Shown here piece after piece: positions 817 through 1,585 of a stretch of DNA of 3,380 bases. The notes under the pieces are model-generated. The model made no database searches and was not told the origin of the DNA. It was given only the letters and a program-made list of their open reading frames with translations. The translations under genes were made by a program, and so were the position numbers. The stretch lies in IMG/VR virus record IMGVR_UViG_2695420687_000016; one strand, 5' to 3'. This stretch comes from a virus (Duplodnaviria > Heunggongvirae > Uroviricota > Caudoviricetes). Numbering within the stretch: the stretch's first letter is position 1; each line of letters starts with the position of its first letter.

Positions 817-1035
817 ATGCAGAAACGAGAACCCGTCATCATCGCGCCAGACTATACCGATGATGAACTTTATGAGTGGATGCGCCAGAAAATTAATGCA
901 GCGCAGGATCTGAAATGGGCTAATGAAGCCAGAGCTAAGCAGGCTGAAAATCTGTCCGCTCTGGAGCAGGATATCACCAATCTGGAAAAAGCAGCGGCAT
1001 TAAGCATTGCCAGAATGATTACATACCCGCGTTAA
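817..1035 (+). CDS. ydfC: Small prophage protein YdfC-like (72 aa), predicted helical/coiled-coil.
   Basis: ATG at 817 preceded by GAGGA at 8 nt; 72 aa, same length as K-12 YdfC; sequence (…KINAAQDLKWANEARAKQAENLSALEQDITNLEKAAALSIARM) is heptad-like. Confidence 0.7.
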   Translation: MQKREPVIIAPDYTDDELYEWMRQKINAAQDLKWANEARAKQAENLSALEQDITNLEKAAALSIARMITYPR

Positions 1036-1375
1036 TAGCTAACCAACGAAGCTAAGGTTGGTAATTAAGGAGTTCTCCACGGGTGAGGTGGAGTGCGTGT
1101 GCCGGACACGGGTGAGCATCCGGCACTGACAGTTTACTGAAAGGATATTTCCCTGAAAAGTCAGACCATAACGCGAAAGCGCACGGCGAGGTAGCTGGTT
1201 CATAGATAGCCTGTCGTTAAATTTTCGTCGACCGTGCGCTTCCGGTTGTGGCACTCCGCGAAATGGCGCGGCGGTAAGTATGGCGGGGTTATTCCTTCCC
1301 CGTTGAGGACACCGGGTTGTCAGGTTGACCATACGCTTAAGTGACAACCCCGCTGCAACGCCCTCTGTTATCAAT
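1036..1375 (+). promoter_or_regulatory. About 340-nt untranslated, GC-rich, hairpin-dense leader between ydfC and dicF; presumed precursor/processing region of the dicF transcript.
   Basis: No credible + strand ORF. Perfect stems at 1099-1106/1119-1126 (gtgccgga/tccggcac), 1177-1186/1232-1241 (aagcgcacgg/ccgtgcgctt) and 1314-1322/1342-1350 (gggttgtca/tgacaaccc). DicF is known to be excised from a polycistronic transcript. Confidence 0.5.
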
Positions 1376-1437: not shown

Positions 1438-1585
1438 TGAATTTTGTGATGTGGTGAATGCGGCTGAGCGCACGCGGAACAGTTAAAACCAAAAACAGTG
1501 TTATGGGTGGATTCTCTGTATCCGGCGTTAATTGTTAACTGGTTAACGTCACCTGGAGGCACCAGGCACCGCATCACAAAATTCA
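1438..1585 (+). promoter_or_regulatory. Long-range inverted repeat able to form a 19-bp RNA duplex (one G-U) bracketing the dicF-dicB spacer; candidate RNase III processing helix or translational control element for dicB.
   Basis: Arm 1438-1456 tgaattttgtgatgtggtg against arm 1567-1585 caccgcatcacaaaattca (reverse complement tgaattttgtgatgcggtg), 18 of 19 identical. The right arm ends 6 nt before the dicB Shine-Dalgarno GAGGA (1591-1595). Confidence 0.5.

Follow-up and report, generated by a model that had tools for sequence, protein, structure and literature searches.

A conserved long-range RNA helix between DicF and dicB closes a putative relative of the STnc100/PasD RNAs

Introduction

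Among the inhibitors of cell division that prophages encode in Escherichia coli, DicF and DicB have been studied best. They are encoded next to each other, and the question arises of how their ratio is set from one transcript. In the 3,380-nt stretch of viral DNA analysed here (the window; IMG/VR record IMGVR_UViG_2695420687_000016), a sequence-only reading had noted that the dicF-dicB spacer is enclosed by two nearly complementary segments. The RNA duplex that they would form was proposed to be a substrate of RNase III, which might release DicF from the polycistronic RNA and set the output of DicB. We have examined what this duplex is, whether it is conserved, what it encloses, and which of these roles can be ascribed to it.

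Results and Discussion

The window contains a Qin-type dicBF operon

The list of open reading frames, the layout of the K-12 locus and the Rfam matches together identify the window as a Qin-type dicBF operon. The genes ydfA, ydfB and ydfC end at position 1035, and dicB (1603-1791) is followed by ydfD. DicF, in its 53-nt form with the terminator hairpin, is located at 1377-1433 of the + strand. Its match to RF00039 (1377-1428) scores 76.7 bits against a gathering score of 48 and the terminator hairpin is present, with the U-tract at 1429-1433, so that both features expected of the family identify it as DicF. On the same strand, dicB encodes a protein of 62 aa that matches phrog_1251 (E = 4e-40), and it is preceded by the Shine-Dalgarno (SD) sequence GAGGA at 1591-1595 with the ATG at 1603-1605. 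E. coli genomes contain a 100% identical stretch annotated as dicB, the region is carried by 4631 of 5426 complete genomes, and over 1376-1620 the window is about 99% identical to E. coli K-12.

A 21-bp helix spans the dicF-dicB spacer

The near-perfect complementarity noted from the sequence was recovered by a repeat finder, which placed two arms of 19 nt at 1438-1456 and 1567-1585, 110 nt apart and 95% complementary. The sole position that is not a Watson-Crick pair, T1452·G1571, becomes a U·G pair in RNA of the + strand. When G·U pairs are allowed, the duplex grows to 21 continuous base pairs between 1436-1456 and 1567-1587 on the + strand, the added pairs being G1437·U1586 and A1436-U1587. 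This helix, here termed P1, comprises 19 Watson-Crick and 2 G·U pairs and, with one irregularity, can be extended to about 28 bp by weak pairing of the DicF U-tract with the dicB SD. P1 thus has the length of an RNase III site, for which we required double-stranded RNA with few interruptions over some two helical turns, or at least around 20 bp. In the whole window it is the longest helix of Watson-Crick and G·U pairs with a span of at most 260 nt; the longest such helix in 200 dinucleotide-preserving shuffles measured 11-19 bp, and 21 bp were reached in none of them. Folding of 1376-1610 with RNAfold, which had been suggested as a check, gave P1 in both the minimum free energy (MFE) and the centroid structure, with a z-score of -4.49 and none of 200 shuffles being as stable.

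The placement of the helix just past the DicF terminator and just ahead of the dicB SD also agrees with what had been described. The left 19-nt arm begins 5 nt past the U-tract of DicF, and only read-through transcripts contain P1. The right arm at 1585 ends 6 nt from the SD, and the extended helix, ending at 1587, 3 nt from it. The inner end of the stem is formed by GGUG (1453-1456), which is invariant throughout the family described below.

The arms of P1 covary as + strand RNA

Homologues were gathered by pattern scans of contigs (one genome per species) and of IMG/VR, which gave more than 200 loci. If chance hits in GC-rich phyla are set aside, nearly all of these were in Enterobacterales. 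In an alignment of 20 diverse sequences with long closing stems (A2), 97.1% of the cells were paired, compared to 27-48% when the partners were slid, and the covariation score was 0.315 as opposed to 0.166 after shuffling (0 of 500 shuffles). RNAalifold applied to A2 yielded the inner part of P1, the hairpins P2 (1460-1475), P3 (1524-1550) and P4 (1552-1566), and a helix of 3 bp that encloses a variable region. Of P1, no more than the inner 10 bp were obtained in this way, as the Rac-type copies have a bulged A that puts the alignment out of register. An alignment of 12 in-register sequences (A3) was made to test the full 21-bp helix, and here 11 of the 21 pairs had changed on both sides while 96% of the cells were paired.

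The same picture emerged from a duplex-based count of 40 unique arm pairs, where most positions showed 2-6 types of pair. For example, position 1447 was occupied by U-A in 20 and by C-G in 12 cases, position 1449 by A-U in 27, G-C in 5 and U-A in 5 cases, and position 1438 by U-A in 21, C-G in 8 and G-C in 2 cases. Duplexes of a left arm with its own right arm averaged -30.3 kcal/mol, as compared to -19.1 kcal/mol for left arms combined with right arms of other lineages. The arm sequences diverge completely between genera with pairing kept. Within E. coli, arm polymorphisms are mostly transitions that preserve the pair (C-G, U·G and U-A at 1452:1571; G-C and G·U at 1453:1570), and one copy carries a double compensatory change at 1447:1576. 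The covariation across dicF-dicB loci that would be expected of a selected helix is therefore present.

The covariance model scored the + strand with 172.5 bits and the - strand with 32.3 bits. This strand asymmetry, together with the frequent G·U pairs, indicates that selection acts on the RNA of the + strand, in keeping with the original view of the repeat as an RNA structure. Over the whole family (alignment A4, 134 distinct sequences), 93.6% of the cells were paired against approximately 42% with slid partners and double changes were seen in 39 of 43 pairs, although these family-wide counts lean towards the model structure because the alignment was fitted to the model. Pairs of P2 flip from CG to GC between the subtypes. 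Altogether, these results confirm that P1 is a real and conserved helix.

The enclosed 110 nt fold into a multi-hairpin RNA

The 110 nt between the arms form a multi-hairpin RNA with the elements P2, P2b, P3 and P4, for which P1 serves as the closing stem; the closed module measures about 150 nt overall. The motif GGUGAAU (1453-1459) spans the inner end of P1 and an AAU linker that leads into P2. Linker and hairpin together occupy 1457-1475, P2 being formed by 1460-1464 and 1470-1475 with A1472 bulged and a UGAGC loop, as judged from RNAalifold and the pair counts. By the same approaches, P2b consists of 3 bp (1476-1478 with 1521-1523) around a region that is variable in length and sequence; one of its pairs is CG in 6, AU in 5 and UG in 1 sequence, and the length that it encloses varies among homologues without keeping to multiples of three. 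P3 (1524-1550) has 9 bp (1524-1532 with 1542-1550) and the loop UGUUAACUG, and 4 of its 9 pairs have changed on both sides. P4 (1552-1566), also given by RNAalifold, reads CCUGG-AGGCA-CCAGG, lies within the family signature CACCNGGAGGCACCNGGCACC and abuts the 3' arm of P1 with zero unpaired bases in between. In the middle of its stem, 10 of 20 sequences have a U-A pair and the other 10 a G-C pair. All of these elements are on the + strand.

The palindrome that had been noted in the loop, cgttaa (1526-1531)-N11-ttaacg (1543-1548) with GTTAAC at 1534-1539 and 1542-1547, is present in full. It coincides with P3, in which GTTAAC is kept in the loop while the stem covaries. The description of the enclosed segment as a plain spacer between dicF and dicB, on the other hand, has to be revised, since it is instead a conserved multi-helix structure, akin to STnc100 as set out below, with the palindrome as one of its covarying hairpins.

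With respect to coding potential, a 27-codon ORF (1458-1541) opens at the ATG inside GGUGAAUGCGG; it is not conserved in type-A copies and broken by indels. A 97-codon ORF (1498-1791) is in frame with dicB and is not kept across module variants. Going by its title, Cam et al. 1988 (cited in PMC5069750) reports an in-phase internal start for the translation of DicB and hence a longer reading frame, to which this ORF may correspond. ARAGORN found no tRNA-like gene in the window.

The module resembles the prophage RNA family STnc100/PasD

In a permissive Rfam scan, the STnc100 family (RF02076) matched 1426-1635 over its full model with 38.7 bits and E = 4e-7, and the closing helix of the STnc100 consensus falls exactly on the two arms of the repeat. 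The consensus fold is found as well, namely the GGUG/CACC end of the closing helix, the 5' hairpin after AAU, the variable middle and the abutting CCNGG-AGGCA-CCNGG hairpin at the 3' side. However, the gathering score of RF02076 is 47, which the window does not reach; the scores of canonical STnc100 copies are 70-88 bits, and L017 from Pseudescherichia, a relative with a long stem, just passes with 47.8 bits. No Rho-independent terminator was found in the window 3' of the fold, where the SD and ATG of dicB lie 4-16 nt past P1, so that the layout is not that of a stand-alone small RNA. The module can therefore not be assigned formally to STnc100, because its score is below the cut-off and the 3' terminator of the family is absent. 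The low score is also the reason why the module is missed by current annotation. Two other Rfam matches, to tsr32 (E = 1.4) and ftsZ-DE (E = 4.3), were weak and were treated as noise.

Likenesses to STnc100/PasD extend from the GGUG/CACC closing end through the GGUGAAU linker, a first hairpin at the matching place and the variable middle to the CACCNGGAGGCACCNGGCACC terminal hairpin, and both are prophage-borne with many copies per genome. In contrast, P2 in the window reads GCGGC.../...GCACGC instead of CCCCC/GGGGG, P3 has the conserved UGUUAACUG loop, and the closing stem measures 21 bp instead of 6-9. Unlike STnc100/PasD, the module has no terminator of its own at the 3' side and is placed within an operon, between the terminator of a small RNA and the ribosome-binding site of a gene. 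Judged by sequence and predicted fold, the module is a divergent relative of STnc100/PasD.

In EHEC EDL933, 11 copies of STnc100 are annotated and mostly well expressed, none of them beside the DicF copies of that strain (PMC5331693). A 2026 preprint that relates STnc100 to PasD, a small RNA of EPEC, makes no mention of DicF, dicB or kil (bioRxiv 10.64898/2026.05.13.724894). Copies of STnc100 and PasD are abundant RNAs in EHEC and EPEC (PMC5331693; bioRxiv 10.64898/2026.05.13.724894). The module of the dicBF operon could offer a handle on this very abundant family, as it represents one member in a tractable operon with a defined processing enzyme. Matches to the phages P7 and D6 also led us to consider the c4 antisense RNA of P1/P7. 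This candidate was rejected: the P7 copy is located in the ban/tRNA operon before terB and not in immI, and Rfam gives STnc100 rather than C4.

Long closing stems are confined to copies upstream of small ORFs

A distant BLAST search against phage genomes returned about 17 records that match only 1423-1587 of the window, with neither DicF nor dicB. Among these are Rac-type and Stx phages, in which the unit precedes kil by about 20 nt, one Klebsiella phage, and the P1-like phages P7 and D6. The P7 copy belongs to the ban operon, where it has tRNA genes on one side and terB on the other. In about 86 of 108 genome copies the closing stem has 6-9 bp. Stems of 14-28 bp occur, among these 108 copies, only in a sub-type that has the GCGGCU..GCGCACGC hairpin as P2 and the UGUUAACUG loop in P3 and that is located directly upstream of an ORF. 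Long-stem copies precede DicB, Kil or several unrelated small proteins of 40-96 aa, so that no single protein family goes with the module. A terminator-like hairpin with a T-run within 120 nt downstream was seen in 32 of 87 short-stem copies and in none of 8 long-stem copies, the latter being a small number. Modules linked to dicB are 110, 118, 124, 126, 127 or 131 nt long.

Two cryptic prophages of K-12 share a three-part order: DicF, module and dicB in Qin, and KilS, module and kilR in Rac. KilS (b4833) is a DicF-like terminator RNA (PMC8175672). In an arrangement paralogous to that of the window, it is followed by the module, here with a closing helix of approximately 22-28 bp that has one bulged A, by an SD and, about 20 nt on, by the ATG of an inhibitor of FtsZ. 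The two loci differ in that the downstream protein is Kil (phrog_294) and not DicB. No mapped RNase III site was found for the KilS-kilR module of Rac in the literature examined. A kilR-sieB peak reported by Gordon 2017 at 1418510 was considered as support for this copy and dismissed, as the position lies just 5' of KilS, outside the module. In the K-12 Rac copy (L127, approximately 947-1203, minus strand), the CACCNGGAGGCACCNGGCACC signature of P4, which does not vary elsewhere, has a G changed to A.

Several further arrangements were encountered. In one of them a type-B copy with a stem of only 9 bp is found directly upstream of a DicF/KilS-like sequence (…CACCACAAC tttatgctgtgtgtagtcctggcgg…), an order opposite to that in the window (loci L007, L128 and L130, with about 25 more from phages of E. 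coli). Short-stem modules also form tandem arrays of up to four or five units, some of them abutting, on chromosomes of Pantoea and Superficieibacter and on one Pantoea plasmid (L090 6386-7031; L112 4123-4768 and 5810-5938; L104; L055; L057; L035). In Citrobacter braakii and Pantoea, some modules end 3-4 nt before a tRNA gene (L111, module 4618-4744 and tRNA-Met 4749-4824; L124, module 4792-4897 and tRNA-Met 4901-4975), and the P7 copy (L001) is inside the tRNA/ban operon of the phage. This suggests that such modules are co-transcribed with the tRNAs, and the arrays and tRNA adjacency together might be a sign of tRNA-like processing or of a binding partner in common. Lastly, sequences from phages of unrelated hosts, MT713136 (Aeromonas phage AP1, 249916-250152) and PP818812 (Actinobacillus phage), are 98% and 87% identical, respectively, to the dicF-dicB region of E. 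coli, possibly as a result of contamination or chimeric assembly.

RNase III processing of the read-through transcript

In K-12, DicF owes its 5' end to RNase E, and a 72-nt form with an RNase III-dependent 3' end derives from the full-length read-through dicBF mRNA (Faubladier 1990, as summarised in PMC5069750 and PMC9438474). A review lists the intergenic regions of dicA-dicF-dicB among the classical RNase III substrates (PMC2777011). Counted from 1377, the 72-nt form would end at 1448 (1377+71), inside the left arm and 8 pairs from the inner end of P1, a position obtained by arithmetic from the size of the product and not from a mapped site. The proposal that the helix is an RNase III substrate that releases DicF from read-through RNA had therefore in essence already been made for this locus. 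The window shares the locus with the K-12 site of Faubladier 1990, and the 72-nt end lies at the position equivalent to 1448; the accounts of that site consulted here give the size of the product and describe neither a 21-bp long-range helix nor a conserved structured RNA. The RNase III step itself is thus old knowledge, and our additions to it are modest: P1 as the closing stem of an unannotated STnc100-like RNA, the palindrome as a hairpin of this RNA, and the corresponding layout at kilR in Rac.

A comparison of RNA-seq data from wild-type and rnc mutant cells lists a peak 'dicF-dicB' at MG1655 position 1649470, with 26 reads in the rnc mutant and 0 in the wild type, which is flagged as known (PMC5371410 Table S1). 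Via K-12 coordinates, this position converts to about 1464 in the window, between the two arms. The support that it gives is weak, because the table (Gordon 2017) is noisy, with very many low-count sites, and has a resolution of tens of nucleotides. If the enzyme cuts after 1448, the rule of 2-nt 3' overhangs leads us to infer a partner cut after about 1576, which would place the 5' end of the dicB mRNA near 1577.

Duplexes that are cut by the host RNase III between early cistrons, and that define the ends of the neighbouring RNAs, are well established in phages, examples being R1.1 and others in T7 and the N-leader and sib in lambda. These signals of T7 and lambda are simple irregular hairpins, whereas the helix in the window is a long-range stem around a conserved four-hairpin domain that exists alone elsewhere.

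The region upstream of DicF deserves mention as well. The spacer between ydfC and dicF (1036-1376) is strongly structured (z = -3.47), and its helices 1177-1186/1232-1241, 1167-1172/1245-1250 and 1088-1096/1251-1259 stack around position 1240 or so. A 190-nt form of DicF has been reported to be RNase III-dependent (PMC10448788). Its 5' end would be expected at about 1240 (1429-190+1), at the helix stack of the spacer. DicF thus seems to have a long-range RNase III helix on either side.

A model for the role of P1 and its alternatives

We consider it probable that P1 represents the lengthened closing stem of an STnc100-like module, which is cut by RNase III and thereby separates DicF from the dicB mRNA. 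In this model, transcripts stopped by the terminator give the 53-nt DicF, and in RNA that reads through, P1 forms once 1567-1587 have been transcribed. In the sub-group of the family that resides in early-left prophage operons, before dicB, kil or other small genes, the stem is lengthened from 6-9 to 14-28 bp, which would make it an RNase III substrate. Cleavage at about 1448/1449 and, presumably, at about 1576/1577 would follow. Combined with 5' trimming by RNase E, the former cut would produce the 72-nt DicF reported for the K-12 allele and part the upstream ydfABC-DicF RNA from the dicB-ydfD mRNA, which would be detached with a leader of about 26 nt. The core of the module would be freed with a stem of approximately 8 bp, the length that is found in free-standing family members. 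One observation stands against this model: the weak K-12 data suggest that the module is depleted in the wild type relative to the rnc mutant, which is unexpected for a stable excised RNA.

Two alternatives also involve cleavage by RNase III. The longer P1 might chiefly allow RNase III to free the core (approximately 1449-1576) as an independent RNA that acts in trans or binds a protein, with the 72-nt DicF and the 5' end of dicB as by-products; this is compatible with our model and shifts only its emphasis. A cut at 1448/1449 leaves a stem of 8 bp, as is typical of the family, the core motifs GGUGAAU and CACCNGGAGGCACCNGGCACC hardly vary from genus to genus, the STnc100/PasD copies of EHEC and EPEC are abundant, as cited above, and terminator-like sites accompany some short-stem but no long-stem copies. 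However, the last association rests on 8 long-stem copies, no RNA of such a size from the dicF-dicB spacer was found in the literature examined, and the K-12 spacer was covered in the rnc mutant and not in the wild type, which suggests that the excised piece is unstable there. We therefore regard this reading as possible, though rather doubtful. The same reserve applies to its generalisation, by which the STnc100/PasD sub-group, with its stem lengthened to about 21-28 bp, would be an excision cassette for RNase III in early operons that turns one transcript into DicF or KilS, a free core RNA with a stem of approximately 8 bp and a dicB or kil mRNA. If it were true, RNase III activity would set the ratio of the three products and the core would have a function of its own; the interest of the present finding would be higher should the excised core prove to be a functional RNA. 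DicB and Kil are toxic, and tight control of both is plausible. This speaks for the other alternative, in which the helix and pairing of the SD with the U-tract of DicF hold DicB down, and cleavage either activates translation or exposes a 5'-monophosphate that speeds decay. In the dicB, kil and Lelliottia (L016) copies, the base of the helix is indeed only 1-10 nt from the SD. The MFE structure pairs GAGG (1591-1594) with the U-tract, and the probability that the SD is unpaired is 0.16 in the read-through RNA compared to 0.60 without the U-tract. These pairs are weak, however (U·G and A-U), and in the partition function the SD is still mostly paired after the presumed cut at 1577 (0.21, against 0.16 before it), so that no clear unmasking is seen. 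As accessibility is alike before and after the cut, the idea that the helix tunes the output of DicB lacks computational support. Moreover, Klebsiella-type copies have the SD 20-50 nt from the helix. Such control of translation or stability is in our view unlikely.

The remaining alternatives do not involve RNA processing at all. The occurrence of the helix-plus-loop unit in varied flanks (dicB, kil, terB in P7 and other ORFs) could be taken to mean that the arms are the inverted repeats at the ends of a small mobile element, or else a protein-binding palindrome. Yet many pairs are G·U on the + strand, where the opposite strand or a cruciform of the DNA would have A·C, the model score is asymmetric between the strands, and the arms diverge between genera and still pair, which is not the behaviour of a site recognised by a protein or transposase. 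Also, no direct repeat as in miniature inverted-repeat elements flanks the unit (...tttttaa before, gttgagg after). An element at the DNA level is thus very improbable. Still harder to credit is that the conservation stems from the 97-codon ORF (1498-1791) or from a minus-strand ORF (1404-1670), the repeat being fortuitous. Both ORFs do exist in the window, and the in-phase start in the title of Cam et al. 1988 can be counted in favour, but the lengths of dicB-linked modules (110-131 nt) do not differ by multiples of three, the module precedes unrelated ORFs, and pair-preserving substitutions dominate. The mobile-element, coding and chance readings are accordingly rejected on the grounds of conserved G·U pairs and no target duplication, of non-triplet lengths, and of a 21-bp helix in 0 of 200 shuffles, respectively.

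Other features of the window

Runs of ambiguous bases are present at 1-237, 164-182 and 2571-2588. In the first ORF, what looks like the N-terminal part of an outer-membrane efflux-type protein is joined across such Ns to the C-terminus of another protein, which we take to be DicA-like. The left end of the window may therefore reflect a rearrangement or an assembly join. Between the 3' end of dicA and ydfA, a perfect 16-bp palindrome with a 5-nt loop (279-294/300-315; cccataggtatttac ttttt …) is longer than any other hairpin of the window that consists of Watson-Crick pairs alone. It could be a terminator or an operator.
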